Origin: an uncultured candidate division Zixibacteria bacterium
GTDB taxonomy: Bacteria; Zixibacteria; MSB-5A5; GN15; FEB-12
NCBI GenBank assembly: GCA_963735035.1
Contig: CAVTJJ010000003.1
Span: 736,001 to 800,000, forward strand
Direction: 5' to 3'
DNA: 64,000 nucleotides
This document shows positions 33,437 to 55,527 of this stretch, piece by piece. The notes beneath the pieces were generated by a model. It was not told the origin of the DNA. It made no database searches and saw only the letters and a program-made list of their open reading frames with translations. Numbering within the stretch: the first letter of the stretch is position 1; the number at the start of each line of letters is the position of its first letter. The position numbers and the translations under genes were made by a program.

Positions 33437-36400
33437 TTATTTCAGGAGCAGCATCTTACGTGTCTCCAGAAATTCGCCTGCCTTGATCCGGTAGAAGTAG
33501 ACACCGCTGGCGTATTGGCTCGCGTTCCAGTCGACCCGGTGATATCCGGCCGGCATCTCACGATCTACGAGGACATCTACCGTCTGGCCAAGAATATTGA
33601 AGATCGTCAGTTTCACCGCATTCGCTTTCGGAAGTGCGAACTCAATCGTGGTTACAGGATTGAACGGGTTGGGGTAGTTCTGCGAAAGCTCGAATCGGGT
33701 CGGGAGGTTCGGGTTGCCGTCCTTGACTGCCAGGCTCACATCCCGGTGAACCATGTCCGCGGCCTGAGCTTTTACCACCTCGTACTCTCCCGGCACGGAG
33801 ATCAACACCCATTCTCCCTTTTCAATCACAGCCGAGCTGTCGAGATCGACCAGACCCACCTTGAGCGTATCCCCATGACGCCCCTGAACGAGATCAAGTC
33901 CCAGTTCCGTGAGCTTGCGAGCAGGCGCAGTTCCCTTCCCGACCAGGCTCAACTGGACGCCTCGCAGTACCATATCGGTCGACAGGAAGAGGCTGGTAGT
34001 GTCGTTGCTGACGGATCGCCACAGGGTGGGCTCGACCGCCGCCATTTTCGCCTGCGGAACGGGTACAGTCTGCGTACAGGAGATCAAATCACGCTGCGAA
34101 ATGAAGAGGTGGTCGACACCGTAGGTTATGTCGCTAATCGTAATGGCGCGCTCCGGATCGGCGTTTAGATTACTCTCGTCGATACACGCCAGTGGGGGGC
34201 AACTGATGAACAGGTGGTCGATAAGAGCTGAGATATCACCGATGGTGCATTCGACCCCGTCCTGGTTGACATCACCACGCACGCCCTGACAGCAGGACGC
34301 AATGGTGAAGCAGTACGGTCCACCCCAGACCGGGTAGGTGTGGCCGGTCCAGTCTCTCCCCGGAAAGTCTCCGTAATACCAGCCCCACGTGTTGCTACCG
34401 TTGGGTAGGTAATCGAAATTGTCAATACAGATCTCCTTGCCGATGTCATCGCATGATACCTGAGTCTCTATATACCAGGCGATTCCCCCGGCCCCGGGCG
34501 GTAGCTTGTAGCCAGCCAAAGGCATAATGGAACCGACAAACGTCACCGAGTCGACCGTTTCGTTATGGTGGATCGAAGTAAAGGTCATGCCGCCCTCCAG
34601 ATACGCCGAGTCCCATACCGGCCCCTCCAAAGCCCATTTCACCACGATTGGATCAAAAGTGGCGCCATCAGGCGACGAAATTGTGAAACCGTTAACTACT
34701 GCCGTGATCGGCTTAGTCTGATCGTTCTGAATGCTCAGTACAAAGCGGACAGTCTGGCCACAGGTAAACTCCGGCCCTGTCGGAGCCAACAATTCCACCG
34801 TCCCGCCGAGCCCGCACGTAGTGTGGGTTGTCTGCACCCAGGGTGTAGTGATATAACCATCCGTCGCCCGTGCCCGCCAGTGATAGACGGTTGCCAGTTC
34901 GCCATCGAAGTTAAGTTTCAGGCTCGGCGACGGGCTATGTTCCACCTGGGTGATGATGTTCTCCATCGCAGAATCACGCGCGAATTGGATATCGTAGTAG
35001 ACCGAATCCTTTTCAGGATCAGTACAACCAGAGAAAGACAAGCCCTCAATGTGTCGATTCCCAGGGTAGTGGGCAGGCGTAAACTGCGGCGTCGACGGTC
35101 CGGCGTTGATGTGTATGAAAAGGTACTTCCAGCTTCCCCAATTAGTGCCGTTGCTTACGTGTACCCGTGCTATATAGTTCGTCCCCCGGGTCAGAGCCGG
35201 CCCGCTGTAGGCAGCCAAGGTATCTACAGACGTTACTTCACCGGTCGTCCAGATACCGCCGCCCTCCCAGGTAGTCGGGAAAGCAGCCAGTTGCAGTTCG
35301 TAGAACTGCTGGGTGCCCACCGTGTCTTTGAAACTCCAGTAGAACGTGGGTGATAATGACATCACGTGATCCTGGACTTCGTCACCAACGTTGATATTCT
35401 CAGCCACCGGCAGGATCTGTGGCGACTGGTAAGGAAAAGCACCTATGTCGCCACGCGTTCCATCGGCATCCACAAACTCCGCAGCGGGATCGCCAGTGTC
35501 AATGCAGGGCGAGCCCGCCGTCAAATGGAAATCACTGTGTGCTGAGTCCGCAAACATTGGATCAGCCGATATACTCCTAGTACCGGGAGTAACCCCGAAG
35601 TAGTTGCCGTCGGCGTTCATATAAGCATCGTTGTAATTGCACGCGACGTTAACATTGGAGAGCACTGCCCAACCTGGGCCGTTGTTGGCAAAAATGTTGT
35701 TTCTTACGTCAACATCGTTCCCGTTCGATTGGGTGAAAGCCAGACATGACCCGCCATAACGGCCGGGAGTGTAGACGGCCTGGACGGTGGTCTGATTGCC
35801 GACGAACGTATTGCCGTGGATCTTCAATTTCAAAGAGTTGCTTGCCCTGATCGCCCCACCCAGATTTGCCTTGTTGTTAGTAAAGAGATTATTTTTGATA
35901 GTGCAATTCTTGGTGTCACTGAGACAGATCCCACCGCCGTATCCACTGAGTCCCAGGTTATTGAACCAGTTGGATTCCACGAGAGCTGAACCGTTTGCGA
36001 TGCGTATACCGCCGCCGCTCGTGCCGTTGTTGCAACTGTTCAGGAATTGATTGTTCCGCACGACTACCTGATCGGTGGTACTGTCGACATACAAAGGCGT
36101 TCTGCCGCAATTAGTGAAGATGCATCCTTCTACTAAGGCCGCCGCGCCATTCAATAGGATTCCCTGGCCGCCGGGGTTTTGAAAGGTAAGATTGCTTATT
36201 GTGGAAACTCCTCGGCTGCCGTTCAATGTAATCAGGGCAGACTGCCAATAAGTAGTACTGGTGATAATCGTAACATCGGGCCCGTCACTGGACGTGAGGA
36301 CAACTACCTTTCCGTCGAAATCAATATTCTCCCGGTAGGTTCCCGGCCCAACAATGACCGAATCGCCGTCAAACGCCGCCGCTACAGCCGCAGATATAGT

Positions 36401-39400
36401 CGCATGATCATCCGGCACCCTTCTTCGACCGGTGAGGCTCACCCGCACAACGGCCGAACTCCAATCACCCCATTCTGTCCCGTCATGCACCCGCAGACGC
36501 AGGAAATATGTCGTGAGATCGACAAGAGCTGGTCCACCATACACCAGATTCCCATCTCCGGATGCAACCGGACCGGAAGTCCAGATCGGGGTGGCCAGCC
36601 ACAGAGGATCTGTTCCCAATTGTGCCTCGTGCTGATTCTGAGTTGTCGATAACGGATCGAGATAGGTCCAGGTGATGGTCGGGGTACCGCTCTTCAGCAC
36701 ACCGTAGGCGTTGACCGGTTCGAGAGCAATATTTGCGGCAATCGGATAATCGACCGGTGAGCCGCTGACGGCCCCGATATCACTGCGACTGCCGTCCGGA
36801 TCGTTGTGGGATGGATCCGGGTCCCCGGCATTCATACACGGCGAATCAAATCGAAGAGCGAAAGTATTGCCAGCCGTGTCAACTATCAGCGGATTGACCG
36901 ACATACCGCCGGGAATTTCCGTAAACCCGACTCGATTGGACAACTGGTTTCCGTAGGCATTGTTATATCGCACATTGGCGGAATAGGTGGATATAATCCC
37001 CGCTCCTTTGTTGAATATGACCAGATTATTGTAATAGTTTCCAGCACAACCAATGCTAAGTCCGTCACCTTCGGTACCGTATATTGTGTTGTTAACAACT
37101 TCCACATTACCGGACTGCGTCTGCAGACCCTGCACGTTGCGGGCAAAGATGTTGTTTCGGGCGGAGCCTGTTCCGGCCCGTAGTCTGGCCGCCAGAGTGC
37201 TTCCCGTGACGTAGTTGCTGTCCAGGCGGTATTGCCCCAGGAGAACAACTGCCCGGTTGTTGTCGACGAATTCGCAGTGCACAGAACTCACGGATTTCGC
37301 AAAACCGCTGTTCAGGGCGGTTCCCGTTAGACCTACGAATCGGCAATCACGAATATCGCAACTTGCGCTGTCTCGTAATAGGATTCCGCAACTGCCATCA
37401 GTGAAGGTCAGTCCAACAATGGTCAATTGGGAGCTCCCTGGCAGAACTGTGATTGTCGCCTCTGCCCCTGGCATCGATTGGAGGATAGTTGAAGCGGCCT
37501 CCCCCGTGGACATCAGGACCAGTCCTTCACACTCCGCTATCACGCTCTCACGATATGTTCCCGGCTCGATGAATATCGTATCACCTTCCACGGCATAATC
37601 AAACGCATCATGAATCGAAGTCATGTCACTGGGGACATGGATCGACCCGGCCCCCTTGAACCGACCGCTTATTTCGTACCAGTCGCCCCATTGGCTACCA
37701 TTGTACAGGCGAATGCGAAAATAGTAGATTACGAAGCTACTCAAAGGCGGACCACTGTAGAAGATATCCGTTTCTGACCCGCTTATCGGCCCCTGGTCCC
37801 ACACCTCGGCTACGTCCCAATATGAATCAGTGCCGACCTGAATCTGGTACATTTGCTGGGTCGTGGGTTGATCATCGACATATTCCCAGCGCAGCTCCGG
37901 AACCAGAGTATAGAATGATACTATCTCGAAGTTGTGAACAAACGGCATCGGCAGTGCTTCGAACCATAAAGCGCCAACATCATTGCGACTGCCGTCCGGA
38001 TCGTTGTAAGACGAATCGGGATCGCCGACGTCGACGGCCGCCGATCCTGGCAGAAGACGTGCATCCCCCAGAGCCGGGTTGGCCAGCATGGGATCGCCGA
38101 AGATCTGCACGCTGCTGTCATAACCCAGGTGGTCTTCCCAGGGAGCCCCGTTTTCCCAGAACAGGTTATGTGAAACATGAGCCAATTCCAGGTCAATCCG
38201 GTAGTCTGACTCGCAGTCAGCGATTGCCTCATAGCGACAGTGTGCAAAGATGTTGTTGTAGACATTGATATCGAAATATTCCGAACTGGCGGAATAGTAT
38301 TCGTCGTTGGTAATGGCCCGGTCATTTCCCCAGAATGTGTTATTGGTTATGTATGCCGAACTGCCCGGTGCTAGAACAGGGATGCGAATAGCGCTCTCGC
38401 CTCCATTGTTAATAAAGAGATTACGCTTGATGTCGATGCGCCGGTTATCGTTGCCCAGAATTACGATAGTTGACGGAGAGACCTGCTGCCAAGTGAAATC
38501 GGGATCGATGTGGATCTGGTTGTCACGGAGGATATTATCTCTGATCGTAGCTGCGCTGTATTGTATGAGGACGGCTGGCGGTCCGGATGCTCCGGTAATG
38601 GTTAGTCCGGCGATTTCGGGCACACCGTAGCTATTGTATCCATATTGGATGCTGATAATCGGCAAATCCAGGGATGCCGGGAGGAGAATAGTATTTTCCG
38701 CTCCCGTTTCGCCCAGGACCAACACCTGACGGTTGATGGCGATTTCGAGGTTCTCTTTGTATTCGCCCGGCGCGATCAGCACAGTATCGCCGGGGAGTGA
38801 CGCATTGATAGCAGCTTGTATCGTGGGGTACTCTGAGGGCACTCGTAGCGCCAGCGAGCCGCCACGGATCATGATGATCGATTGCAGCGGGTTGATCAGG
38901 CCGGAGCCCAACTGACCCGCCAGATCCGGATTGAGATGATCGAGGCTCGTAGCCGTCGAAATAATGGCGTCAATCACTTCCTGGCGCGTGGCCGAAGGTT
39001 TATAGGTCCAGAGCAGGGCCGCCTGGGCCGCCACGAACGGTGCGGCGAAACTGGTTCCTCCCCACCAGGCGTAACTGTCGCCGAGATACGGACCATAGAT
39101 ACCGGTGCCGGGGGCGCAAACATCAATGTTGGAACCGTAGCAGGAGAAATCGGCCAGAAGATCGAGCGTATCGACCGCGGCCACACCCAAAACGTTGGGA
39201 TCCGAAGCTGGGAAATGAGCGCCCGGCGTATGGCCATTGCCTGCCGCGGCCACGATCAGAACCTGATGTTCGGCCGCATAGGCCGCCGCCGCCGCGATCG
39301 CGTCATGGCGTTCGATCGTAACCAGGCTGAGATTGATTACCTTGCATCCGTCATTCACCGCCTGGATGATCGCCTCTGCCAGAACATATGCATTGCCCAG

Positions 39401-40045
39401 ACCATCAAGACCGGTGACGCGATAGACATAGATGTCCGCTTCGGGGGCGACCAATCTGGTGACACCCGCCACGAAAGTACCGTGACCACTGTTAGCTCCG
39501 CCTTCTTCGTCGAAGGGATCGTTGTCGGAATCGACGTAGTCACGGCGTTTGACTACATTATCCTTGAGAAGGGGATGATTGTAATTCACACCGCCGTCGA
39601 GCACCGCCACGCGTACCCCGGCACCGGTGGCCTGAACATGCACCTGATCGAGACCGAGGTGGGTTGCCGCTTCCTGGTTGCGGAAATCTCCTGTGCGCTG
39701 ATTATCCGATACCGGCAGGCTTCCCTGTACACCCTTGAGAGGATCGACCAGGAAATTCGGCTGGCAAAACGCCACCCCAGGCATCGCGGCCACAACCGCC
39801 GCCAGAGAGTCCAGATCGGGACCGGTCGGCAGCGAAAGCAGGTATATCTCCAATTGGCTCAACTGCTGCTCGACCGTCGCACCGACCGATGAGACAACTT
39901 CATCTACGGAATGGCCTGGCTGCATCTTGAGAACCAGCGAACCATCCTCATAGCGCGTTGAGCCGTTGACCATACCGCTGAGTGAGATACCCAGGATCAA
40001 CACGCCTATTGTGATTCTCAAGACTGTAGTTCGGGGACTGCCCAT
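33437..40045 (-). CDS. Giant secreted S8 subtilase with three beta-helix/Fn3-like repeats, dockerin-like pair and T9SS-type C-terminal sorting domain (~2200 aa; start ATG 40045)
   Basis: AAGGAGG SD; signal peptide; triad VAVLDGG / SGHGTFVAG / GTSFAAP plus AAGN; GDVNQDG..IGDISALIDHLF; NYPNPFNP...SGVYFYRI...RKMLLLK. Confidence 0.9.
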   Translation of the reverse strand: MGSPRTTVLRITIGVLILGISLSGMVNGSTRYEDGSLVLKMQPGHSVDEVVSSVGATVEQQLSQLEIYLLSLPTGPDLDSLAAVVAAMPGVAFCQPNFLVDPLKGVQGSLPVSDNQRTGDFRNQEAATHLGLDQVHVQATGAGVRVAVLDGGVNYNHPLLKDNVVKRRDYVDSDNDPFDEEGGANSGHGTFVAGVTRLVAPEADIYVYRVTGLDGLGNAYVLAEAIIQAVNDGCKVINLSLVTIERHDAIAAAAAYAAEHQVLIVAAAGNGHTPGAHFPASDPNVLGVAAVDTLDLLADFSCYGSNIDVCAPGTGIYGPYLGDSYAWWGGTSFAAPFVAAQAALLWTYKPSATRQEVIDAIISTATSLDHLNPDLAGQLGSGLINPLQSIIMIRGGSLALRVPSEYPTIQAAINASLPGDTVLIAPGEYKENLEIAINRQVLVLGETGAENTILLPASLDLPIISIQYGYNSYGVPEIAGLTITGASGPPAVLIQYSAATIRDNILRDNQIHIDPDFTWQQVSPSTIVILGNDNRRIDIKRNLFINNGGESAIRIPVLAPGSSAYITNNTFWGNDRAITNDEYYSASSEYFDINVYNNIFAHCRYEAIADCESDYRIDLELAHVSHNLFWENGAPWEDHLGYDSSVQIFGDPMLANPALGDARLLPGSAAVDVGDPDSSYNDPDGSRNDVGALWFEALPMPFVHNFEIVSFYTLVPELRWEYVDDQPTTQQMYQIQVGTDSYWDVAEVWDQGPISGSETDIFYSGPPLSSFVIYYFRIRLYNGSQWGDWYEISGRFKGAGSIHVPSDMTSIHDAFDYAVEGDTIFIEPGTYRESVIAECEGLVLMSTGEAASTILQSMPGAEATITVLPGSSQLTIVGLTFTDGSCGILLRDSASCDIRDCRFVGLTGTALNSGFAKSVSSVHCEFVDNNRAVVLLGQYRLDSNYVTGSTLAARLRAGTGSARNNIFARNVQGLQTQSGNVEVVNNTIYGTEGDGLSIGCAGNYYNNLVIFNKGAGIISTYSANVRYNNAYGNQLSNRVGFTEIPGGMSVNPLIVDTAGNTFALRFDSPCMNAGDPDPSHNDPDGSRSDIGAVSGSPVDYPIAANIALEPVNAYGVLKSGTPTITWTYLDPLSTTQNQHEAQLGTDPLWLATPIWTSGPVASGDGNLVYGGPALVDLTTYFLRLRVHDGTEWGDWSSAVVRVSLTGRRRVPDDHATISAAVAAAFDGDSVIVGPGTYRENIDFDGKVVVLTSSDGPDVTIITSTTYWQSALITLNGSRGVSTISNLTFQNPGGQGILLNGAAALVEGCIFTNCGRTPLYVDSTTDQVVVRNNQFLNSCNNGTSGGGIRIANGSALVESNWFNNLGLSGYGGGICLSDTKNCTIKNNLFTNNKANLGGAIRASNSLKLKIHGNTFVGNQTTVQAVYTPGRYGGSCLAFTQSNGNDVDVRNNIFANNGPGWAVLSNVNVACNYNDAYMNADGNYFGVTPGTRSISADPMFADSAHSDFHLTAGSPCIDTGDPAAEFVDADGTRGDIGAFPYQSPQILPVAENINVGDEVQDHVMSLSPTFYWSFKDTVGTQQFYELQLAAFPTTWEGGGIWTTGEVTSVDTLAAYSGPALTRGTNYIARVHVSNGTNWGSWKYLFIHINAGPSTPQFTPAHYPGNRHIEGLSFSGCTDPEKDSVYYDIQFARDSAMENIITQVEHSPSPSLKLNFDGELATVYHWRARATDGYITTPWVQTTHTTCGLGGTVELLAPTGPEFTCGQTVRFVLSIQNDQTKPITAVVNGFTISSPDGATFDPIVVKWALEGPVWDSAYLEGGMTFTSIHHNETVDSVTFVGSIMPLAGYKLPPGAGGIAWYIETQVSCDDIGKEICIDNFDYLPNGSNTWGWYYGDFPGRDWTGHTYPVWGGPYCFTIASCCQGVRGDVNQDGVECTIGDISALIDHLFISCPPLACIDESNLNADPERAITISDITYGVDHLFISQRDLISCTQTVPVPQAKMAAVEPTLWRSVSNDTTSLFLSTDMVLRGVQLSLVGKGTAPARKLTELGLDLVQGRHGDTLKVGLVDLDSSAVIEKGEWVLISVPGEYEVVKAQAADMVHRDVSLAVKDGNPNLPTRFELSQNYPNPFNPVTTIEFALPKANAVKLTIFNILGQTVDVLVDREMPAGYHRVDWNASQYASGVYFYRIKAGEFLETRKMLLLK

Positions 40046-40055
40046 ATCTTCCTCC

Positions 40056-42785
40056 TTATCCTGCTCCGTAAACGGAGAAGGATGCCCAATCATAGACCGA
40101 TGGATATTTCTGTCTGACGGTAAGCGATGCTTCACGCACAGCGTCGCATACACTCTGACCGCTCAAAATCGATTTGTAATAATGACCGATCCACACCGCG
40201 GCCGAATTGTCGGATACCGCCCAATGGCTGCCTACCACGTTGCGGCTGCCCATCTCCAGAAGACAACGCACAAGCCCGGTGGCTTCCTCACCCGGCGCCA
40301 CCGACTGGTGGGCTGTCCGACAGGCAGCCAACGTCACCAGGCCAACCCGGCAGTTCTTCAACCTGAAATCGGCCCCGAACAACGGACCGTCCTGAAGTTG
40401 AAGTGAAGAATAGAACGGATTGTCGGTTCGGTAGCGGGCATGTCCTGTGAAATGCCACATGGCCCACTCGCCCTCAGAGGGCCAGTCCTCGCGTTGACAC
40501 GGATCGTGCAGCTCCAATTCGACCGAGGCACGAAGCAGCCCGGCAAGTTCTTCGTGGGTGGGGACTAGATTTGTCTTGTCGCCCACGAAGACACCGACCC
40601 GTCCCTGCGGCGAAACGTCAAGAGTCCGCGCGTACAGGTGATGTTGCACACTCGGCGAAATGATCAAGCTGTGATCAAGAATCACAGCACGCTTCCCGTG
40701 TATGAATGCCGACCAGGGCAGAGTGGATAAGAGTCCGTCCGGCACAATAAGTACCTTGCGGTGTTCGTGTCCAATTTCGAGCGGGCTCCAGAAGAAATCG
40801 CCCATTTGGGTAAAGAGACGGCGCTCGTCATCCAGATCAGCCGACGTGCACCCGGAAGCTGACAGCAATGACCGATTGAGCTGCACCTGCCATGCGCCGG
40901 ACCATTCAGGAAGCAGTCGTCGCGCACCACGATATCGACACACCCGCGATGAACCGCGCTCATGGACAATTGCCACTATGTCTTCCTTCTGAAGACAGAA
41001 CTGCACCACCGGGTACTCGGCCGACACAGCCTGCAGGCCGGAACGAAATCGCCTTAACCATGGTTCGAGACGTCGCGGCTGTTGCTCCATCATGGCGAGG
41101 TTGTCGCGCACTTCGCGCTGGAGACGGCGCAACGAAGGATGTGACGCGAAACCATCGCCTGATCGCGTGCCGGGAACCGGACCGATCTGCTCGGCCAGAG
41201 CCGATACTTGACGCGCCAGTCGGGAAAGCGATTCCTCAGCCTGAGTACGCTTGGCCGCCGCAGCGAACGACGCGCCGGAGGCCGCCCAAATTCCAACCGT
41301 CTTGAAACGGTCGATCCAGGTGGTTGCGCACACCGGATTGTCGTCTATCGTGTGGGCTATTAATCGCTCATAGGGATCGGTCCGACCATGCGTGAAGGTG
41401 GAGCGGAGTTCCACCGGTGGCAGTTTGGCCCGCACCAAATCAAGCACTTCCGCCGCTCGTGTCCAGTGACCCATGGCGCTGGCGAAAGCACCGCGCTTGT
41501 ATTCACGGTCTCCCTGTATTGTCTGATAATGCGCCAGAAGATACGGCACACTCTTTACGGCGGGATTGCGGCTAAGCCGGCGCCGGGCCGTGTCATCATC
41601 CGGCATATCCGTGAGCAGTTGCAGATCGCTTATAGCGGCCCAGAGAGGGAGTTGACGGTCGGCTAACTTGCTGCGAATCTGTCTCAACCTTGACGGCTTC
41701 GCCGCCTGGCCGGGGGCAACCTGGACTTCGAAAAGTCGGACAGCCGTCCGGAACTCCTTGTTCTTTTCCAGAGAGAATTCGCGTCGCGCCCGCCTCAAGG
41801 CGCGGCTAACCTCGGCCCCGCGGCCGAGCACATGGGCAGATCGAGCCCGAAAGAAAGCCGCTTTGCCCGCTTCATAATGCAGGCCCAGGCTATGCGAACG
41901 GCGCTCCGCCTCTCGTGCTGCACTCAGGGCATCCGCAAAGAGATTCAGTCCAAGGTACACTTCGGCGCGATCTAGTACACACAGCAGCACACCCTTGTTC
42001 TGCCGCACCTGCCGATACTTCTCTTCACACTCGTACAGCAGACGCAGCGCGACATGATAGTCGTTGCTCAACACTGCCAGCCAGGCCAGACCGTAGTTGC
42101 TCTCGTTGACAAACAGATCGTGAAGCTGGCGGCCGAAATTCTCCCGCGCCTTCTCGTAGTATTTCCGGGCTTCATCGAACTCGAAGAGCTGGACCAGGGT
42201 GTTGGCCAGATTGTAGTAGCACAATCCCAGCACCAGTTCGTTCCCGCTCCCCCGCTCGAGATGCCGACGGGCCGTCTCGTAGTTGCGGCGTGCTTCACGG
42301 TGACGGTCCTGCCGATGCAAGAGATTGCCGTAATTGATACGGGTCTTGGCTACCTGGTCCAGGTCCCCGAGTTTTTGAAAAGTAACCATGGCCATACGGG
42401 CCCGACGTCGCGCCACCACCGGGCGTCCCAGATACATATAAACATCTATCAAAATCTTGTCGATTTGGGCGCGATTGAAGGGGCTTCGGACAACCAGCGC
42501 GCGAGCTTCCTGATAAGCCGCCTCTGCTTCCGGATATTTCCCGGAACAAAGACTGGTCCAGCCGAGGCACCTTAGCGCGATCTGTAACGGCATTTCGGAC
42601 TGGGCGCGGGTGAGCTTGACGAACTTCTTCGCCATCGCGTGTGCCCGGGGGATCGATCGTTGGGTTTCCGCCCGAACCAGGCGATCACACGCCGTGGTCA
42701 ATTCATGAGGGTCTATTCCGTCAGCGTGACCGGATTTGAGAAATCTCCTGGCCGCCGCCTCAGAACTGCGCCGCTCTACTACCAC
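40056..42785 (-). CDS. TPR-CHAT domain protease (copy 1)
   Basis: TPR-like helices (NYGNLL, YYNLANTL); CHAT motifs LIVPDGLLSTLPW, HFTGHA, LVTLAACRT, SHWAVSD and WASF. Confidence 0.9.
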   Translation of the reverse strand: MVVERRSSEAAARRFLKSGHADGIDPHELTTACDRLVRAETQRSIPRAHAMAKKFVKLTRAQSEMPLQIALRCLGWTSLCSGKYPEAEAAYQEARALVVRSPFNRAQIDKILIDVYMYLGRPVVARRRARMAMVTFQKLGDLDQVAKTRINYGNLLHRQDRHREARRNYETARRHLERGSGNELVLGLCYYNLANTLVQLFEFDEARKYYEKARENFGRQLHDLFVNESNYGLAWLAVLSNDYHVALRLLYECEEKYRQVRQNKGVLLCVLDRAEVYLGLNLFADALSAAREAERRSHSLGLHYEAGKAAFFRARSAHVLGRGAEVSRALRRARREFSLEKNKEFRTAVRLFEVQVAPGQAAKPSRLRQIRSKLADRQLPLWAAISDLQLLTDMPDDDTARRRLSRNPAVKSVPYLLAHYQTIQGDREYKRGAFASAMGHWTRAAEVLDLVRAKLPPVELRSTFTHGRTDPYERLIAHTIDDNPVCATTWIDRFKTVGIWAASGASFAAAAKRTQAEESLSRLARQVSALAEQIGPVPGTRSGDGFASHPSLRRLQREVRDNLAMMEQQPRRLEPWLRRFRSGLQAVSAEYPVVQFCLQKEDIVAIVHERGSSRVCRYRGARRLLPEWSGAWQVQLNRSLLSASGCTSADLDDERRLFTQMGDFFWSPLEIGHEHRKVLIVPDGLLSTLPWSAFIHGKRAVILDHSLIISPSVQHHLYARTLDVSPQGRVGVFVGDKTNLVPTHEELAGLLRASVELELHDPCQREDWPSEGEWAMWHFTGHARYRTDNPFYSSLQLQDGPLFGADFRLKNCRVGLVTLAACRTAHQSVAPGEEATGLVRCLLEMGSRNVVGSHWAVSDNSAAVWIGHYYKSILSGQSVCDAVREASLTVRQKYPSVYDWASFSVYGAG

Positions 42786-43342: not shown

Positions 43343-43424
43343 GTGGTTCCGTCATCCAGGACAATCGGAGAACAAACGTTCCTACGTAACGACTGCGTCA
43401 CCGACTTGCCCGTCTTGTGTGTAT

Positions 43425-48199: not shown

Positions 48200-48790
48200 C
48201 TCCTATCGGTTTATGTTAGTAAACGATCAAAGAGGGAGTTCACCCCGATACCGAACGCTGACGACCTCCTGTCCCAGAGGACGTACCGGCTTGGTTATTT
48301 TCATCTTCCGGCACTCCTCAAAGGCGGTCGAGAACCGGAACATGATGCTGTGGGTGCACTGTAAGTATAAGCTATATCAAACAAGACTGTCCACTCTTTT
48401 TTATCGTCACAGATTAGGGCTTCCGGACCAAAGGGGAAGCTTACGTGCGTACTACTGCTATTGCAGGCACGATGACAAGTCGGAAGAGAAGACCGACGGC
48501 ATGGCAGGAAGACTTGGTTGAGATATGCCCGATGCTGACCACCGTGGGCAATTCGACGACCAACTTCTACCAGCTGGCGCCTTGGAGTTGCTGCCCACTC
48601 GAAGGCTGAGATCATCTTACAACCGATTGTAGGTCATGCGGATTGCCTCCCCGATTGCTCCTGCGAACAGCTGCAGCGAATCACCTGACTTCAATTGTCC
48701 TTCCAAGAAGTCGAAAAGGACATTATAATCCAGATTAGACGGGTCAGGCCCATCCGGCCAGGATCCGTGGGCTTAGGCAAATGGATTGCA

Positions 48791-49387
48791 ATGACTTCTA
48801 AAGAGATGAGTCGCACCGATACCGAGTTGTGGCACGCCATCCTGGCCGGCGAACCAGCAGCGTGGAAGGAGCTGGTCGTCCGTTATCGGTCTCTCGTCTA
48901 TGCCACGTGCACCTACCTTGGCCTCTCTCAATCTGAGGCCGGGGATGCCTTCCAACAGACCTGGCTTCTTCTCTTTCAGAAACGGGGGCAGATTCGTGAC
49001 CCCCAACGGCTATCGGCCTGGCTCGTAACCACCGCCAGGCGTGAGGCCCTTAGGTTGAAGAACCGCTCCGATGCCGTATCACTTGACTCAGCGGCGGCAG
49101 AAATCCCCAACCTGGAACCAGGCCCGGAGCAGGAGCTTCTGTTGATCGAACGGCAGGCTGTGATAGAAACTGCTATCGAGCAACTCGACAACCCCTGCCG
49201 GGAACTAGTGCGTGCCTTCTTTTTCGCACCCGCCGACCTTTCCTACGAGGACATCGCCCGTCAACTCGGGTATTCCCCCAACACCCTTGGAGCCAAACGA
49301 CAACGATGTCTGGCCCGGCTCAGAAGAATCCTCGAGAAACTTGGCTTTCTGGATGAACGAAAATCGGAAAAGGAACCTCTGCTATGA
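48791..49387 (+). CDS. ECF sigma-70 factor (copy 2; start ATG 48791 or 48806)
   Basis: GEPAAWKELV.RY..LVY, DAFQQTW and LSAWLVTTARRE; SYEDIARQLG...LGAKRQRCLARLR. Confidence 0.92.
   Translation: MTSKEMSRTDTELWHAILAGEPAAWKELVVRYRSLVYATCTYLGLSQSEAGDAFQQTWLLLFQKRGQIRDPQRLSAWLVTTARREALRLKNRSDAVSLDSAAAEIPNLEPGPEQELLLIERQAVIETAIEQLDNPCRELVRAFFFAPADLSYEDIARQLGYSPNTLGAKRQRCLARLRRILEKLGFLDERKSEKEPLL
49354..49381 (+). promoter_or_regulatory. Candidate sigma-2 promoter TGAACGAAAATC-N11-CTCTG at the end of the sigma-2 gene
   Basis: Identical 12-mer and CTCTG recur at 54217-54245. Confidence 0.55.
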
Positions 49388-49971
49388 CGAAGCAAAGGAG
49401 GTCTGGTACGGAAAGACATTTGACACGCAAGGAACTGCTCTCGGCTGCCAGGGACGAACAGGTGCCGACCGATCATCTCAGCCAGTGCGCCGAGTGTCGG
49501 GAGTCGGTGTCGCTCCTCAGATCGTTCCAGATGGCTGGCCGAACGCCTTTACCCGAGCCGCCGCTGGCATGGATCGAGCGAGCGGCGAAGATCCCGGAAA
49601 GTTCATGGCGCTCCCGGATTCTGGCTCAAGTAAAGGGTGTCATCACATTCGATTCCTGGCTTCAACCGTACCCGGTTGGAGTGCGCGGCCAGGCCAGCTC
49701 CAATGAACGGCGAGTCTGCTGTGAAGCTGGTCCCTATCTTGTTGATCTTCGAGCCGAGAAACACGTCGACGGCTGGAGAATGGTGGCTCAACTCTCCGGC
49801 GAAAACGCCGAGACGGCCAGATTGATTGACGGCGCTCAAATTGTCCCGGCCGACCCCGACGCAATATTTCAATGGTCAGCGACACACCCCCCGTCGGCCC
49901 TGTCAATCCAGGTCGGCGAGAAATGCATCCTGTTCCCTAAATTGTCATGGAAACGTCCTCGCAAAACATAG
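49384..49971 (+). CDS. Soluble zinc-finger (HxxxCxxC) anti-sigma-like protein (copy 2)
   Basis: DHLSQCAEC; shares FD(S/T)W..P...VR....ERRV and W..(S/A)...P..L with copy 1. Confidence 0.7.
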   Translation: MTKQRRSGTERHLTRKELLSAARDEQVPTDHLSQCAECRESVSLLRSFQMAGRTPLPEPPLAWIERAAKIPESSWRSRILAQVKGVITFDSWLQPYPVGVRGQASSNERRVCCEAGPYLVDLRAEKHVDGWRMVAQLSGENAETARLIDGAQIVPADPDAIFQWSATHPPSALSIQVGEKCILFPKLSWKRPRKT

Positions 49972-52694
49972 CCCGGAGATTTCTCTCTACGGGTCGAACG
50001 ACGACCGTCCCAGAGGCGGAGCTTACGACCGCCTGTGTCAGTTTGATCCTTGCTGTGTCCCGGAAATCTTTCGTGCGCTCACTGGAACTGAGCGAGAAGT
50101 TTGTTGGGTTCGCTAAGAGTCATGATCAGGGGATGCGTCTGATGGCCTATCGTGTCCTCGGGCAAATGAATCACATGGCCGGAAAACACACCGAGGCTCT
50201 CGCGGCCTACAGTCACGCGCGACGTCTCGCCGCCCATGATGTCAGGGCACGAGCCGGTATGGACAGGATGCTGATCGACGTCTACATGTACCTTGGCCGT
50301 TATTCGGACGCCCGGCGTGCGGCCACCCGAGCAATGAAAGCCTACAAGCAGGCTGGCCTGGAAGGCGACTGGCACAAAACTCGTGTCAATTATGCCAACC
50401 TGTTGCATCGTCTGGATCGCCATGTCGATGCTGGTCGGATATACCGTGAGGCGGCTGACTATTTCGAGCGGGCGGCTGATCCGTTGGCTACGGCCCGTTG
50501 CCTGTACAACCTTGCCAATTGTCTGGTGCAACAGTTTGAAATAGCGGAAGCCGAAAGAGACTATGCCCAAGCCCGGGAAATATACGAGCGCGAGTCTTAC
50601 ATGCTGGACGCCTGCGACGTGCGCTACGGTCAGGCCTGGCTCAAGATGCTCAGAGGGGAACTACATCTGGCCCTCCTCGAGTTAAACGAATGTTCGCGGA
50701 TCTATCAAAGTGCCGGAAATCGTCGCGGCGTGGCGCTCTGCCAGCTTGATCTTGCCGAAGTGTCTTTGGGACTCGGTCTCTATTCGGATGCTCTCGACTA
50801 CGCTCGCAAATCGTTCCGACAATTTGCACATCTGAATCTTCGCTACGAACAAGCCAAATCGGCTCTCTTTCGGGGCCAAGCCGCTCTGGCCGTGGGCAAG
50901 AACAAGGAAGCTGCCCGGGCGGCTGAATGGGCCAAAGCAGGTTTCGACGCTGAACAAAACCGTGGTTTTGCCGGCGTAGTCCAGCTTTTGTTTGCCGCTT
51001 TGGAGGAAGGATCTGATCATGCGGCTTCACTTCGGCTGCAACGTGCCGGCCGACTCTTTCAACGGAGCCAACTACCTCTTTGGGAAGCTGTATGCGACAT
51101 GCGCTCAGCCCATGATGAGTCGCGCTCGGACCGGGCACTGCAGCGCCTGGCGCGGAACAAGGCTGCCCATGTGGTACCACATATATATGCAGGTTGGCAG
51201 ACCATCCAGGGCGACCGACACCAGGCCGCCGGCCACGGCGCGCAAGCACGAAAATGCTGGACGCGAGCGGCAGACCGACTCGACGCGGTCCGGAGCCAAC
51301 TCCCCCCTATAGAGCTACGGAGCGCCTACGGACGCTCCCTACCTTCACCACACTCCAGACTGGTGGCTGCGGAGGCGGTTCGTGCTCCCCTCCGCGCTGC
51401 CGTCTGGTCTGAACGCCTGAAGACCGCAGGTGTATGGGCTCCGGTTTCGTCGGAGGCGCTTAACTCCCACAGTCGCCGGAGAATTAACGCCAGCCTCGAA
51501 GCATTGTCGTCACAGGTTGCCGGCCTGATGCACCACTTGCCGGGACAGCAGGGCGAACGCGGAATGACTACCGTCGGATCCAGTCGATCGCTTCATCGCC
51601 TCCAGCGTCAACTTCGACTTCAGTTCTCAGAAATGGAAACGACACCGGCTGCCCAAACCGATGACCATGGCGATCTGGATCGATTGATAGCATCGACTTC
51701 GAAACGTCTGCCGATCGTGCAGTTCCATGTAGCCGACAATGACATTTACGTCTTTGTACATCAGCACGGGCGAACGACCCTGTGTACCATTCGGGACGGT
51801 CGTCGCCGAATTGCGTACGCGATGGAGCGATGGCGCTTCTTCATGGAGCGACAGCTATTTGCATCTTTCCCGGGAAGGCAGATCCTGGGGCAAAAGGAAG
51901 ATACTTTCTGGGCTGAGCTGGGGAGTTGGCTCTGGCATCCGCTAATGGTGGATTCGGCGGCTGACAATGTCTTGATTGTGGCCGAAGGCGAGCTGGCCAA
52001 CCTGCCCTGGCAGGCGCTGTCGTTTCACGGAAAACTCCTGGCCGAGCAACATCATATCACTCTCGCGCCCAGCATCCGTCATTTTGTGGCGGCTGAAAGA
52101 GTTAGGGTATCCGATCCGTCGGTTCAATTCTTTCGGAGTGACGTTGGCAGCTTGCCTAATACAGAGGCAGAAGCTTCAATCCTGCGGAGACTGGCCGGTG
52201 ATGCGTTGACCGAACATTTTCCCTCGCGCCGGACCGACTGGCCCACCGAAGGGGAAAGTCGCTTATGGCATTTTGCCGGTCACGCGGTGCTCCGCCACGA
52301 AAACCCTTTCTATTCCTACTTGCTTCAATCGGATGGTCCACTTTTTGCGGCTGATTTTCGCATGCGCCGCTGTCAAGTCAGCCTTGCCACGCTGGCCGCT
52401 TGCAGGACTGGCGAACAGGTGGCCTTGCCAGGTGATGAATCAACTGGCCTGGTGCGCTCCCTTCTTGAGATGGGGGCCCGCAATGTTGTGGCAGGACGCT
52501 GGCCGGTATCGGATGAAAGCGCCTCACATTGGATGACTGATTTCTATGGCAGATACTTTCGAGATGATGATCTTTTCACCGCGGCCCGTGAAGCAACCCT
52601 CGGGGTGAGAGAGAAGTACCCCTCGGCCTTTCATTGGGCTGCTTTCGCGGTTTTTGGCGCCGCCAGAACGGGAGGCCCATATGTGGCCCATTAG
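49947..52694 (+). CDS. TPR-CHAT domain protease (copy 2)
   Basis: TPR-like N-terminal half; EGELANLPW, HFAGHA, LATLAACRT, RWPVSD and HWAAF. Confidence 0.9.
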   Translation: METSSQNIARRFLSTGRTTTVPEAELTTACVSLILAVSRKSFVRSLELSEKFVGFAKSHDQGMRLMAYRVLGQMNHMAGKHTEALAAYSHARRLAAHDVRARAGMDRMLIDVYMYLGRYSDARRAATRAMKAYKQAGLEGDWHKTRVNYANLLHRLDRHVDAGRIYREAADYFERAADPLATARCLYNLANCLVQQFEIAEAERDYAQAREIYERESYMLDACDVRYGQAWLKMLRGELHLALLELNECSRIYQSAGNRRGVALCQLDLAEVSLGLGLYSDALDYARKSFRQFAHLNLRYEQAKSALFRGQAALAVGKNKEAARAAEWAKAGFDAEQNRGFAGVVQLLFAALEEGSDHAASLRLQRAGRLFQRSQLPLWEAVCDMRSAHDESRSDRALQRLARNKAAHVVPHIYAGWQTIQGDRHQAAGHGAQARKCWTRAADRLDAVRSQLPPIELRSAYGRSLPSPHSRLVAAEAVRAPLRAAVWSERLKTAGVWAPVSSEALNSHSRRRINASLEALSSQVAGLMHHLPGQQGERGMTTVGSSRSLHRLQRQLRLQFSEMETTPAAQTDDHGDLDRLIASTSKRLPIVQFHVADNDIYVFVHQHGRTTLCTIRDGRRRIAYAMERWRFFMERQLFASFPGRQILGQKEDTFWAELGSWLWHPLMVDSAADNVLIVAEGELANLPWQALSFHGKLLAEQHHITLAPSIRHFVAAERVRVSDPSVQFFRSDVGSLPNTEAEASILRRLAGDALTEHFPSRRTDWPTEGESRLWHFAGHAVLRHENPFYSYLLQSDGPLFAADFRMRRCQVSLATLAACRTGEQVALPGDESTGLVRSLLEMGARNVVAGRWPVSDESASHWMTDFYGRYFRDDDLFTAAREATLGVREKYPSAFHWAAFAVFGAARTGGPYVAH

Positions 52695-54108
52695 GCAACT
52701 GTTAACATCGCTCACCTTCATCCTGGTATTGCTGCTCCCGCCCGCGGCGACAGCACAGGGGGGGCAGGGGCCAGGCAAGGGTGGCTATAAGCCCGCTGAG
52801 ATCGTATGCCGCCTCGACTCAACTACTACAATAGATGAAATCAACACTCTTTTCGGTACGACCGTTCGCGGACACCAAACCCAGACCGACTGCTTCTTGT
52901 TGTTCGTCAGTGGCGGGCGTAATGCTGACAGCTTAGCTGAGATTATCGCCCAGACTCCCGGAGTCGTCTACTGCAGCCCCAATTATTATCTAATGGCTCC
53001 TGAGGGCCTTCAGGGTAGTTCTCCATTTCCTGATCTGGAAGTGATTGGCGACATGGATGGCCAGCTCGCTGCCGAGCAGCTTCAACTCACGCAGGTGCAT
53101 CAGGTCGCAACGGGAACCGGCATGAAAGTGGCCGTGATTGACGGCGGCGTGAACTTAAAGCATCCCTATTTTGCTCTTCATTCGGGAACTCTTGTTTCTG
53201 TCTATGATTACATCGACAACGACGAAGTGGCCTTCGACGAGCCCGGAGGGTCGAATTCCGGCCACGGCACGTTTGTCGCCGGAATTGTTCGTCTGGTTGC
53301 CCCTGACGCCGATTTGTACATATATCGAGTGCTAGATACAGCCGGCATGGGTGACGGCTTCTCTATCGCGCAGGCCGTCCTGCAGGCCATATCCGACGGT
53401 TGCCAGGTTATAAATCTGAGTCTGGGTATGTCCGGCTTGCACGACGGGCTCGACGATGCTCTCAAACTGGCACACCAAAACGAAATAATGGTGGTCGCAG
53501 CCGCCGGCAATGATTCGACCAGCGCCTTGAACACGTTCCCCTTCCCGGCAATTCGGGAATACTGCATAGCCGTAGCGGCTCTCGACTCCGTTCTGCTCAA
53601 AGCCGATTTCTCCAACTACGGCACACCAATTGACATCTGTGCTCCCGGAACACGCGTGTACTCTCCTTACCTTGACGAACTCTATGCCTGGTGGGACGGC
53701 ACGAGCTTCTCGACGGCGTTCGTCACCGGGCTGGCTACGCTGTTAAGACAGCAGCATCCGGTGGCCTCGTGGGATGATCTATATGGCTCGATCCTCAACT
53801 CGGCTAAGAACGTCGATACTCTCAATCCGACCTACGCCGGACTGCTGGGTTCCGGCCAGATCGACCTGCTCAAATCGCTTGGGGCGTCGGGTGAAATCAA
53901 ACGCGGGGATTTGAACTCAGATGGCACTGTGAGTATCGGTGACATATGTGTACTAATAACCTACCTATACATCGATCCCTCAATTTCCAATCCGGGAATT
54001 GCAGGCGATGTCAATTGTGATAATTCACTGAGCATAGGTGACATATCGATGCTTGTGGCTCACCTTTTCATAGACGATCAACCGCTCTGTTCGGGCGATT
54101 TGCCTTAG
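52681..54108 (+). CDS. Secreted S8 subtilase with C-terminal dockerin-like domain (start ATG 52681)
   Basis: GGAGG SD; signal peptide ending ATA|Q; VAVIDGG / SGHGTFVAG / GTSFST; GDLNSDG..IGD and GDVNCDN..IGD repeats. Confidence 0.9.
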   Translation: MWPIRQLLTSLTFILVLLLPPAATAQGGQGPGKGGYKPAEIVCRLDSTTTIDEINTLFGTTVRGHQTQTDCFLLFVSGGRNADSLAEIIAQTPGVVYCSPNYYLMAPEGLQGSSPFPDLEVIGDMDGQLAAEQLQLTQVHQVATGTGMKVAVIDGGVNLKHPYFALHSGTLVSVYDYIDNDEVAFDEPGGSNSGHGTFVAGIVRLVAPDADLYIYRVLDTAGMGDGFSIAQAVLQAISDGCQVINLSLGMSGLHDGLDDALKLAHQNEIMVVAAAGNDSTSALNTFPFPAIREYCIAVAALDSVLLKADFSNYGTPIDICAPGTRVYSPYLDELYAWWDGTSFSTAFVTGLATLLRQQHPVASWDDLYGSILNSAKNVDTLNPTYAGLLGSGQIDLLKSLGASGEIKRGDLNSDGTVSIGDICVLITYLYIDPSISNPGIAGDVNCDNSLSIGDISMLVAHLFIDDQPLCSGDLP

Positions 54109-54216: not shown

Positions 54217-54245
54217 TGAACGAAAATCAGGTCGCCCCCGCTCTG
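54217..54245 (+). promoter_or_regulatory. Second copy of the candidate sigma-2 promoter (N12 spacer)
   Basis: TGAACGAAAATCaggtcgcccccgCTCTG between the terminator and the next gene. Confidence 0.55.
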
Positions 54246-54321
54246 TATTTCAAAAGACGTCCAGACATGGACATTAACCGGCACCGTCGTTCCGGTGACC
54301 GCTTTTGCGAAGGAGGAATGT

Positions 54322-55527
54322 ATGAAGTATGCAAGATCAGCCGTGGTTACCGGAATGGTACTTATGGCTGCCGTCATGTTCGCCGGGTGTTCGCGTAACA
54401 ACCCGATCCAGCCTACATCCGACCACTCGGCGTTTGACGTCCTTGCCAGCTCGCCGACCGGGGCCCAGCTCAACGTTCGCGTTCAAACCTGTGATCAGCT
54501 TCGTCAGATGCTGACCGTCTGTGACCGTCCGGACACGATCATGGCCAACCAGAACTGCGAAGTTGTCCGCGTACAAAACGGACAGGCAACTGCAGCATCG
54601 TTTGGAGACATTCACCCCGGCGATAGCCTTCAGGTGTTCGGCTCACGTCAGCAAAACAACTATATCTATGCTTACCGCCTTCAGATCAAGTACCAGGAGG
54701 CACAGGGTTATCAGGTGGCCGCCCGGGTCGCAACCACTGACCGAAACCGATTGATGCTCACCTTCCAGGACAGGCCTGACACGTGCGTCGCAACGCAGCA
54801 ATGTGAATGCACCCGCCAGTGCCAGAGAACCCAGTTCGGGCTTGATTTCGCCGATATCCAACCCGGCGATTCCGTCCAGGTGTTCGGATCACGGCAACAG
54901 GATGGTTTTATCCATGCGCAGCGTATCAAAGTATGTGCCACCGACGCCGGCGGGCGGTGGGATATTTCTTTCAAAGATACAATTGCTGCCATCGACTACG
55001 AACTCGGTACGTTCACGGTCAAGAACCGTACTGAGTTGATCACAACCGACGAAAACACCGTGGTGAAAGCTGTATTAGTAGTGGTCAACCCGCCGACTGA
55101 CAACGGCAAGAACAGAGGCGGCGTCTCACTCGGAACGCCGCCGCAGTGGGGTCAGACTTTCATCGATACTTTGCTTTCATTCACGGATCTGGAAGTTGGC
55201 GACTTGGTCACGGTACACGCACTATATGTGGATGATCAGACCCTGTTGGCGGCCTGCATTACTCTGTCCGACTGCACCAATCTGAATCAGAAGTGCGTGC
55301 AATTTACGGCTCCCATCGCTACGATAGAAGTCGGGACCAGGACCGTCACATTTGATGGTCAGGCCTGGATCGGTCAGGTATGTAATGGCGCTAAGTTGAT
55401 TGGATTGGACGGAGAAGAGCTTACTCTGGCTGATTTTGTAATCGGCGACCTGGTGGCGGTGAAGGGGTTTCCTCTTAGTGAGTCAGAATTGCGCATTTCG
55501 CAGATGGAGAAAGTAACCGCTCTCTAG
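54322..55527 (+). CDS. Lipoprotein with four DUF5666-like (OB-fold-like) repeats (start ATG 54322)
   Basis: AGGAGG SD; lipobox FAGC; FGDIHPGDSLQVFG, FADIQPGDSVQVFG, FTDLEVGDLVTVHA and LADFVIGDLVAVKG. Confidence 0.78.
   Translation: MKYARSAVVTGMVLMAAVMFAGCSRNNPIQPTSDHSAFDVLASSPTGAQLNVRVQTCDQLRQMLTVCDRPDTIMANQNCEVVRVQNGQATAASFGDIHPGDSLQVFGSRQQNNYIYAYRLQIKYQEAQGYQVAARVATTDRNRLMLTFQDRPDTCVATQQCECTRQCQRTQFGLDFADIQPGDSVQVFGSRQQDGFIHAQRIKVCATDAGGRWDISFKDTIAAIDYELGTFTVKNRTELITTDENTVVKAVLVVVNPPTDNGKNRGGVSLGTPPQWGQTFIDTLLSFTDLEVGDLVTVHALYVDDQTLLAACITLSDCTNLNQKCVQFTAPIATIEVGTRTVTFDGQAWIGQVCNGAKLIGLDGEELTLADFVIGDLVAVKGFPLSESELRISQMEKVTAL

Follow-up and report, generated by a model that had tools for sequence, protein, structure and literature searches.

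In this study, we have analysed a window of 64,000 nucleotides (nt; positions 736,001 to 800,000 of contig CAVTJJ010000003.1, assembly GCA_963735035.1) from the genome of an uncultured soil bacterium of the Zixibacteria (3.6 Mb, 97% complete), and we describe two divergent four-gene modules found in it. Each module encodes, in the same order, a sigma factor of the extracytoplasmic function (ECF) type, a small soluble protein for which the name Zas is coined here, a protein carrying tetratricopeptide repeats (TPR) and a CHAT protease domain, and an exported subtilase of family S8. Their domain content and synteny show that modules A and B are genuine copies, paralogous and of old standing, of a conserved regulatory cassette. 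We regard it as moderately probable that each cassette is a self-contained switch, in which a protease gates an ECF sigma factor and the output is proteolytic and exported.

Module A occupies positions 33437-44026 of the window on the minus strand and module B positions 48695-54108 on the plus strand, with Pfam families assigned to all component genes except zasA and zasB. On the A side these are sigA (43436..44026), zasA (42779..43342, 187 residues), chatA (40056..42785, 909 residues) and S8A (33437..40153, 2238 residues); on the B side, sigB (48695..49387), zasB (49384..49971, 195 residues), chatB (49947..52694, 915 residues) and S8B (52654..54108, 484 residues). The original prediction placed the starts of sigA and sigB at 43999 and 48791, and we take these as the likely ones; for the subtilases, starts at about 40045 (MGSPRTT..., S8A) and 52681 (MWPIRQ..., S8B) are likelier, because the signal peptides begin there. 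That the same four-gene order occurs twice, in divergent orientation, is confirmed by identical Pfam domain sets on both sides and by the paralogy of all four pairs: 41% identity between the sigma factors, 28% between the Zas proteins (E 7e-20), 40% between the CHAT proteins over 907 residues, end to end, and 45% between the subtilases over their catalytic part. The genes overlap or abut, as had been predicted, with sigB and zasB sharing an ATGA and the zas and chat frames overlapping by 4-25 nt in most loci. Both Zas proteins have the motif H-x3-C-x2-C (HLQSCNSC in zasA, HLSQCAEC in zasB), both CHAT proteins keep WHF[T/A]GH and LAAC, and both subtilases keep the contexts of the Asp, His and Ser residues, so that the catalytic residues of the two proteases are intact in both modules, again as predicted. 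By these comparisons, the cassettes are two ancient paralogues.

The conservation of this gene order elsewhere, on which the original prediction depended, is borne out by two samples of loci. When 20 kb were inspected around 40 matches of a Zas profile in four families, the order sigma, zas, chat, S8 was found on one strand in 39 of the 40 loci. The exception (L052) has a truncated CHAT gene and lacks an adjacent S8 gene; another locus (L047) keeps the order with its CHAT gene split into three open reading frames (ORFs), and a third (L072) holds a weak, divergent version of the cassette. With CHAT as the bait (80 loci, in part the same as those of the Zas sample), sigma and zas lie upstream in 69 of the 71 loci with room for them, and S8 directly downstream in 64 of 67. 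Since the same order recurs in other genomes, a chance juxtaposition can be rejected. The Zas profile matches 125 of 285 genomes of Zixibacteria (91 of the 198 of good quality), with up to four copies per genome. The family is a small one, with 176 clusters at 50% identity among 1.8 billion representatives; a Zas relative is labelled Candidatus Zixiibacteriota, as are most contigs from the CHAT-bait search, and no fused Zas-CHAT form was seen among the clusters listed (150 of the 176, 58-232 residues). Among sequencing runs, no RNA run was listed as a match, and a single run of soil DNA contains a fraction of 0.11 of the sequence words.

Two types of cassette can be told apart. In the B type the subtilase has about 470 residues, and one or two DUF5666 genes usually come after it; in the A type it has 600-2200 residues. 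The A type occurs in two of the sampled families (f1, f2) and the B type in four (f1, f2, f4, f5), and the duplication must be old because each type spans more than one family. The twin arrangement of the window, in contrast to what the original prediction suggested, is not the rule: in the other sampled genomes that hold both types (G065, G071, G073, G047 and G098) A and B lie at separate loci, and the back-to-back layout is therefore incidental. At one further locus, the back-to-back neighbour of a B-type cassette is of a third kind that has diverged further (L069:3430-8845, minus strand; identities to the cassettes of the window of 30% for sigma, 26% for CHAT and 33% for S8), which indicates that the family has more than two ancient branches.

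Both sigma factors are of the ECF type (group 4), with Sigma70_r2 above the Pfam cut-off (sigA, E 2.1e-11, 43.9 bits; sigB, E 2.8e-9, 37.1 bits) and region 4 below it (Sigma70_r4 in sigA, E 0.0076, 16.2 bits; Sigma70_r4_2 in sigB, E 1.4e-4, 21.9 bits). Homologues in other cassettes span 179-256 residues. In the region-4 part, two cysteines (sigB C168 and C205, at about 49196 and 49307 of the window) are invariant in all 42 cassette sigma factors, and a cysteine of region 2 (sigB C85) is kept in 38 of them. Such invariant cysteines are unusual for ECF sigma factors, and they may form a disulphide or share a zinc site with Zas.

The zas gene abuts the sigma gene in every case, and its product can be read as a soluble zinc anti-sigma factor that would bind the adjacent sigma. 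Four zinc-ligand positions (H12, H31, C35 and C38 in zasB) are invariant in 19 of 19 Zas sequences and each is conserved in at least 90% of 71 diverse representatives, with H31, C35 and C38 retained in 40 of 42 modules; together they compose the zinc-binding anti-sigma (ZAS) motif, that is, H-x3-C-x2-C with a fourth ligand upstream, in a spacing that resembles that of ChrR. It is this motif, its invariance and the fixed position beside an ECF sigma factor, and not a family match, that underlie the assignment. Searched as a profile against solved proteins, Zas has no significant similarity; its best relative is the zinc anti-sigma RsiW, at a weak E of 0.039 and aligned over HxxxCxxC. A protein atlas gave leads only, in the form of Acidobacteriota clusters labelled 'zinc-finger', in one of which 27% of the members carry zf-HC2. 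The AlphaFold2 model of zasB (mean predicted local distance difference test, pLDDT, 64) comprises helices at 15-47, a disordered linker of low confidence at 49-106 and a beta-sandwich at 108-183 (pLDDT 75-91), for which a wide VIA-align search with the model returned generic Ig-like matches only (best Z 7.5). Only four columns are invariant among 71 Zas relatives, D90, W92, R101 and R109, and all of them fall in the linker or in the first strand. Hydropathy and N-termini reveal no transmembrane (TM) segment and no signal peptide in Zas, sigma or CHAT of either module, the maximum over 19 residues being 0.55-0.61 for the Zas proteins and 1.27-1.45 for the CHAT proteins.

In the CHAT proteins of both modules, a His-Cys dyad lies behind an array of TPR (CHAT E 2.7e-32 in chatA and E 1.6e-32 in chatB, with TPR families matched in both). 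In chatB numbering, H779 is present in 41 of 42 modules and C819 likewise in 41 of 42. The AlphaFold2 model of chatB (pLDDT 86.9, predicted template modelling score 0.84) shows a TPR superhelix extending to about residue 530, followed by the CHAT domain. Foldseek searches with this model retrieve separase (E 6e-16), Csx29 (about 1e-13) and DdvA (8rot, 6.7e-12). At the level of sequence, a CHAT profile run against solved proteins finds the DdvA CHAT domain best (E 5e-4) and Csx29 marginally (E 0.15-0.29), and phmmer with chatB against PDB chains gave 0 matches. The TPR part contains a set of invariant residues (N148, N151, H154, R155, D157, H159, N188, N191 and Q195); such rows of Asn, His, Arg and Asp bind extended peptides in other TPR proteins. 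A third CHAT-domain gene was seen on the same contig outside the window (G000:C3:942631-943635, open frame of 1062 residues, CHAT E 2e-62); since the chatB search did not list it, this gene is unlikely to be of the cassette type.

A model of the complex between chatB (residues 61-915) and zasB (residues 51-195) gave an interface score (ipSAE) of 0.66, with 0.66, 0.66 and 0.69 in individual runs, against 0.00 for the best of three controls. Among solved complexes, 116 of 157 attain this mark, as do 2 of 215 mismatched pairs; these counts are a rough yardstick only, because alignments of our own making went into the model. Contacts agreed between runs in at least 78% of cases, and the pLDDT of the partner was at least 72. 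In the modelled complex, zasB 97-103 (PVGVRGQ, including R101) contacts chatB 778-781, around the catalytic His, 817-819, around the Cys, and 853-859, with the conserved D856, and the Zas beta-sandwich (108-163) rests on the CHAT helix 624-653. The four invariant residues D90, W92, R101 and R109 are all in or next to the modelled contact region. The model thus supports the binding of Zas by CHAT, with the invariant linker (D90, W92, R101) placed at the His779/Cys819 dyad. With respect to the original proposal that CHAT cuts the anti-sigma factor, binding and the position of the linker are backed by this controlled model, but a substrate is not distinguished from a pseudosubstrate.

Securin binds separase as a pseudosubstrate, and Zas might stand in the same relation to CHAT. 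It would then be an inhibitor or adaptor of the protease, whose target would lie elsewhere (the sigma factor, the S8 precursor or another protein), and it would couple the availability of sigma to the activity of CHAT, in either direction. The complex model, which shows only that the linker lies on the dyad, would suit such a role, as would the position of separases as the best structural matches of CHAT and the overlap of zas and chat in nearly all loci, suggestive of matched production as for a stable complex. However, the invariant arginine, flanked by small residues (GVRG or AVRQ), resembles the sites at which Arg-specific caspase-fold proteases cut. The known systems that join CHAT to an anti-sigma also act by cleavage (Csx29-Csx30, and DdvA through its proposed self-cleavage). 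On balance, we consider a securin-like role of Zas unlikely, and we retain cleavage of the Zas linker by CHAT as the preferred reading.

The zas, chat and S8 genes appear to be placed behind promoters of their own sigma factor. In B-type loci, we find a recurrent bipartite motif of the ECF type, composed of TGAACGAAA, 14-16 nt and CTCTGTA, which resembles RpoE-type promoters (-35 GAAC, -10 TCTGA). Perfect sites number exactly two in the window, where 0.02 would be expected: one (TGAACGAAA-N14-CTCTG, 49354..49381, plus strand) lies inside the 3' end of sigB and ends 2 nt before the ATG of zasB, and the other (TGAACGAAA-N15-CTCTG, 54217..54245, plus strand) lies upstream of the DUF5666 gene. If a single mismatch is tolerated in the first box, the 41 sequences contain 59 sites, compared with 1-10 in 20 shuffles. 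The motif precedes zas, in sense orientation and within the 3' end of the sigma gene, in 21 of 29 B-type modules (three more lie in over-long ORF calls), and it precedes the DUF5666 gene in 17 loci (with three more besides); it is also found before additional S8 genes in two loci (L064, L065), and in three (L039, L040, L042) it points away from the sigma gene. Read on the strand of the sigma gene, the motif looked antisense, a reading that was abandoned, as its reverse complement gives genes downstream of nearly all sites. Exact counting of dyads was nearly blank, with no more than 6 sequences compared with 4 in a shuffle. In the whole genome, the full TGAACGAAA box at -35 occurs at the two cassette sites only (a loose pattern occurs 33 times, versus 22-25 in shuffles), so the regulon looks local, and the DUF5666 gene is probably a member of it.

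No B-type motif in sense orientation was found before the sigma gene in B-type loci, and a Gibbs search of the regions upstream of B-type sigma genes, which gave nothing above the control (12.0 bits versus 11.0 for shuffled input), agrees with a sigma gene that lacks the motif. By the positions of the motif, the prediction that the sigma factor amplifies its own module is accordingly only half right: it would apply to zas-chat-S8 and to the DUF5666 gene, but not to the sigma gene itself.

In the A type, the motif has the form GTAC[T/G]A[A/G][A/G], a spacer, and then GGAACT or CTCT. One copy (GTACGAAG-N13-GGAACT, 43425..43451, minus strand) lies between sigA and zasA, in sense for zasA-chatA-S8A, and a copy between sigma and zas is seen with the loose pattern in 7 of 13 A-type modules. 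A second copy (GTACGAGA-N13-GGAACT, 44162..44188, plus strand) lies upstream of sigA and points away from it, as is the case in all 13 A-type modules. Both copies share the same -10 variant (GGAACT or CTCT) in 7 of the 7 loci in which both are seen, which fits one cognate sigma factor reading the two. No conserved ORF was found downstream of the divergent copy across A-type loci; a 114-residue ORF without a family (44302-44646, plus strand) follows it in the window and a TetR-like ORF in one other locus (L051), and elsewhere there is no ORF. The divergent motif could give rise to a non-coding RNA, or it could block the promoter of the sigma gene itself. An Rfam search over 33000-56500 returned nothing but two tRNAs.

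The promoter motifs would also be expected if Zas were an anti-sigma factor of the RsrA or ChrR kind, which releases its sigma alone in response to redox state or zinc, with CHAT and S8 being merely genes of the regulon. The HHCC motif with its ChrR-like spacing, the soluble two-domain layout and the location of zas-chat-S8 behind the sigma factor's own promoter motif are all in keeping with such an arrangement. It leaves unexplained, however, that the most constrained residues of Zas are in the linker and not at the zinc site, that the linker is modelled at the CHAT dyad, and that an intact CHAT gene always follows zas in an overlapping frame, and we think it quite improbable.

These observations allow us to propose how the protease-gated switch would operate. 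Through its N-terminal zinc-binding helices, Zas would keep the sigma factor inactive; its beta-sandwich is modelled docked on the CHAT helix, with the invariant and otherwise disordered linker (D90-S-W92 ... G-V-R101-G) running across His779 and Cys819. A cytoplasmic cue, perceived by the long TPR array, would then cause CHAT to cut the linker, most likely after R101, which would part the sigma-binding region from its anchor; with the loss of this region, the sigma factor would be set free. To judge from the positions of the motifs, the freed B sigma would transcribe zas-chat-S8 and the DUF5666 gene, and the freed A sigma would transcribe zasA-chatA-S8A, the second copy of its motif driving a divergent transcript. 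The expected products are a dockerin-bearing subtilase and a lipoprotein in the case of B, and a giant subtilase sorted by the type IX secretion system (T9SS) in the case of A, and newly made Zas would reset the switch. The two cassettes are probably insulated from each other, because they are ancient paralogues with different promoter boxes.

Several points weigh against this proposal. The whole case is built from sequence, models and synteny. For Zas, Pfam finds no family, zf-HC2 (PF13490) included, in either protein of the window, and zf-HC2 run against 19 Zas members matches 2, at a best E of 0.038, which is below significance. The complex was modelled with shortened chains, both supplied as alignments, and the result fits Zas equally well as a substrate or as a pseudosubstrate inhibitor; moreover, part of its score may reflect likeness, because solved complexes of CHAT proteases with their substrates exist (Csx29-Csx30, separase-securin). 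As regards the promoters, the statistics for the window are post hoc, the patterns having been derived from these same sequences, and the orientation of the motifs was chosen by their likeness to ECF promoters and by asking in which reading genes follow the sites. The -10 box of the B type lies 2 nt from the ATG of zasB, so that the transcript would be leaderless or start inside zasB. The A-type patterns are loose and have many chance matches, and the Gibbs motif reaches 15.0 bits compared with 12.7 for shuffled input. Finally, both other genomes of the host genus (77% and 100% complete) have no Zas, from which it follows that the cassette is dispensable.

The exported nature of the output bears on the function of the cassette. 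The subtilases match Peptidase_S8 with E 9e-43 and 2e-39, and across modules the catalytic Asp is conserved in 39 of 41, the His in 40 of 41 and the Ser in 39 of 41, counts that include one mis-picked ORF (L053). Besides the triad they have a prodomain, above the Pfam cut-off in S8A only (E 6.6e-7; S8B, E 0.0074), and, by hydropathy and N-termini, signal-peptide-like N-termini (after M37 in S8A). In S8A the prodomain is of the Fervidolysin family, and the S8 domain is joined by Ig-like, beta-helix and DUF5123 domains and a Por_Secre_tail, which is the C-terminal sorting domain of the T9SS, and S8B ends in a dockerin. The DUF5666 gene (54295..55527, plus strand; DUF5666 E 1.7e-12) encodes a protein with a lipoprotein-type signal (...MFAGCS, lipobox FAGC), as does a neighbouring caspase-like gene (...LFGCSQ). 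Judged by these signals, sigma, Zas and CHAT are cytoplasmic and the other products are exported. The dockerin of S8B and the co-regulated DUF5666 lipoprotein might be cargo and surface anchor, in a logic like that of cohesin and dockerin.

The original prediction listed a phage challenge among its tests and pointed to a caspase and hipBA between the modules. Pfam confirms that a hipA/hipB toxin-antitoxin pair (44782..46499, minus strand; HipA at 44782-46074 and a HipB-like helix-turn-helix protein at 46071-46499) and a Peptidase_C14, or caspase-like, lipoprotein (47309..48199, minus strand; His and Cys contexts kept) lie between the two modules. The caspase cannot belong to a cytoplasmic cascade, because its lipoprotein signal marks it as exported, and no sigma-B motif was found upstream of its gene. 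Homologues of 76-79% identity occur within 10 kb of B modules in four other loci, and we regard it as probably a neighbour and not part of the switch. About 130 nt upstream of the caspase gene (approximately 48200-48400 of the window) are strongly conserved in four of five loci (L039, L040 and L042 among them), in blocks ...AACCTAGCCGGTACG...GAGGAGGTCG...GGGGTGAACTCCCTCTT... that have no Rfam match; this stretch could be a leader RNA or the promoter of another sigma factor. The hipBA genes sit in a stretch of low GC content (0.487 at 44001-46000, versus 0.56-0.59 in the cassettes) and are absent from the 40 other cassette loci, the marks of a bystander.

An anti-phage switch, in which infection activates CHAT and the freed sigma factor induces defence effectors, has its attraction in the analogy to DdvA/DdvS, which regulates CBASS (a cyclic-oligonucleotide-based anti-phage signalling system) and type III-B genes (PMC11506125, in the sections drawn on here), and to Csx29-Csx30-RpoE (PMC10028731, likewise), as well as in the presence of hipBA and a caspase between the cassettes. 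The outputs marked by the motif are, however, exported subtilases and a lipoprotein and not intracellular effectors; the caspase is itself exported and without the motif, and hipBA does not recur. PADLOC finds no match for sigma, Zas or CHAT, and its matches for S8 and the caspase are generic. Of the 285 genomes of the phylum, 125 have the cassette, and each of the two paralogue types is represented in more than one family; the flanks of the cassettes in the window hold multihaem cytochromes, CstA, an NADH-dehydrogenase/Mrp-like complex, OmpA, Wzy, PcrB and alanyl-tRNA synthetase, which by their gene content are ordinary chromosome with housekeeping genes and not a defence island. A defence function is thus very unlikely in our view, and the switch is better connected with the degradation of extracellular protein, since its output is exported proteolytic machinery.

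The independence from CRISPR that had been predicted does hold in the window: none of the scanned ORFs of at least 150 residues is a cas gene, and no CRISPR-like array is present, the sole tandem repeat sitting inside a multihaem cytochrome gene. The repeats in question (216/432 bp, 13569-14797) are in a gene for a cytochrome of 957 residues (13840-16713, minus strand), which is adjoined by MtrC/MtrF-like and cytochrome c7 genes. On the other side of the cassettes, two tRNA genes (55664-55737 and 55861-55934, minus strand) lie directly downstream of the DUF5666 gene. Alanyl-tRNA synthetase is encoded by two overlapping ORFs (59185-61921, minus strand), with the tRNA-synt_2c catalytic part at 60422-61921 and the end of tRNA-synt_2c, tRNA_SAD and DHHA1 at 59185-60504; this could be due to a frameshift or an assembly error, or it could be a genuinely split enzyme.

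The ECF54 gene neighbourhood of Actinobacteria is said to have been treated by Huang et al. in 2015. In the sections drawn on here of a later survey (Casas-Pastor et al. 2021, PMC7826278), ECF54 is 100% actinobacterial, with no anti-sigma factor listed and with promoter boxes GTATCAG and CTCC. In its context, the gene at +1 encodes a carboxypeptidase-regulatory-like protein, the subtilase stands at +2 or -1, and TPR-CHAT is encoded at +3 or -2; the main text of the survey touches on ECF54 only briefly. Proteolytic control of the sigma factor has been proposed, without a reported experiment, in what a review gives on this group (PMC8999054). As far as these sources describe it, ECF54 brings together the same four kinds of gene as our cassettes, namely sigma, a small beta-sandwich protein, a subtilase and TPR-CHAT, and the likeness is one of gene context. 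It differs in its order (sigma, beta-sandwich protein, subtilase, CHAT, as opposed to sigma, Zas, CHAT, S8), in its host and its promoter boxes (here Zixibacteria, with TGAACGAAA/CTCTGTA or GTACTAAA/GGAACT) and in that the +1 protein has here an invariant HHCC zinc motif. On the strength of those entries, the gene set is already catalogued, and the Zixibacteria cassette is a variant of an ECF54-like context. The original prediction held that neighbourhoods of this kind exist without a mechanistic characterisation; likewise, a literature search that covered the earlier ECF groups in the supplement of the 2021 survey turned up no study of the mechanism of a stand-alone cytoplasmic cassette, but the context is in print as ECF54 and a fused counterpart, DdvA/DdvS, has been solved.

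According to the parts of the report used here, DdvA of Myxococcus xanthus is one chain with a zinc domain, a TM helix and a periplasmic, dimeric TPR-CHAT part, for which self-cleavage is proposed; RseP is involved, and the regulon of DdvS is a CBASS and type III-B island (PMC11506125). In common with it, a gene for a peptidase is found in the operon and CHAT cleavage is proposed as the releasing step; unlike it, the zinc and CHAT proteins of the window are separate and both cytoplasmic, and the genes marked by the motif are those of exported proteases and not of such an island. Craspase consists of the TPR-CHAT protein Csx29 with Csx30, Csx31 and RpoE and is activated by Cas7-11 with target RNA, as related in the sections consulted (PMC10028731). 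The likeness there lies in a cytoplasmic TPR-CHAT protein whose target, a putative one in our cassettes, is a small soluble protein linked with an ECF sigma factor, and it extends to the strong Foldseek match (TM-score by target 0.42-0.56). In contrast to Csx29, our CHAT proteins are not encoded with Cas7-11, the window having no cas gene or array and the CHAT proteins no PADLOC match. To our knowledge, Csx30 has not been described as a zinc anti-sigma factor.

Soluble zinc anti-sigma factors are represented by ChrR, the partner of RpoE in Rhodobacter sphaeroides, RsrA and RsiW, with an N-terminal H-x3-C-x2-C and a C-terminal beta-rich sensor. Zas has the same soluble two-domain layout as ChrR, but its C-terminal domain is a generic Ig-like beta-sandwich, modelled as docking on a CHAT protease, and we know of no CHAT-type partner of ChrR. 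In the case of separase and securin, the best Foldseek match (TM-score by query 0.52-0.57) goes together with a disordered segment of the partner in the active site; the difference is that these are eukaryotic cell-cycle proteins without a sigma factor, with a sequence identity of 10-12%.

New in this study are the promoter motif, with a regulon that looks local, and a controlled model in which the invariant Arg linker of Zas sits at the active site of CHAT; the two together make the mechanism directly and cheaply testable. A more far-reaching interpretation, which we put forward tentatively, as possible rather than probable, is that the cassette is a CRISPR-free, cytoplasmic counterpart of Craspase and separase, in which the protease grips the zinc anti-sigma factor by a beta-sandwich exosite, the invariant Arg being in the active site, and a cue-triggered cut serves a sensor of 'protein utilisation', and that it provides the missing anti-sigma factor and mechanism of ECF54-type sigma factors. 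The cue bound in the TPR groove might be, for example, re-imported peptides made by the induced subtilase, much as polysaccharide utilisation loci are controlled by sigma and anti-sigma factors. ECF surveys, in the entries drawn on here, list ECF54 without an anti-sigma factor or a mode of control, and the small protein adjacent to the sigma factor can here be read as a zinc anti-sigma factor. So far, caspase-like proteases of this class have been understood only as parts of CRISPR systems or in a fusion that spans the membrane, and the cassette described here could explain how extracellular proteolysis is controlled in an uncultured phylum that is widespread in soils and sediments.

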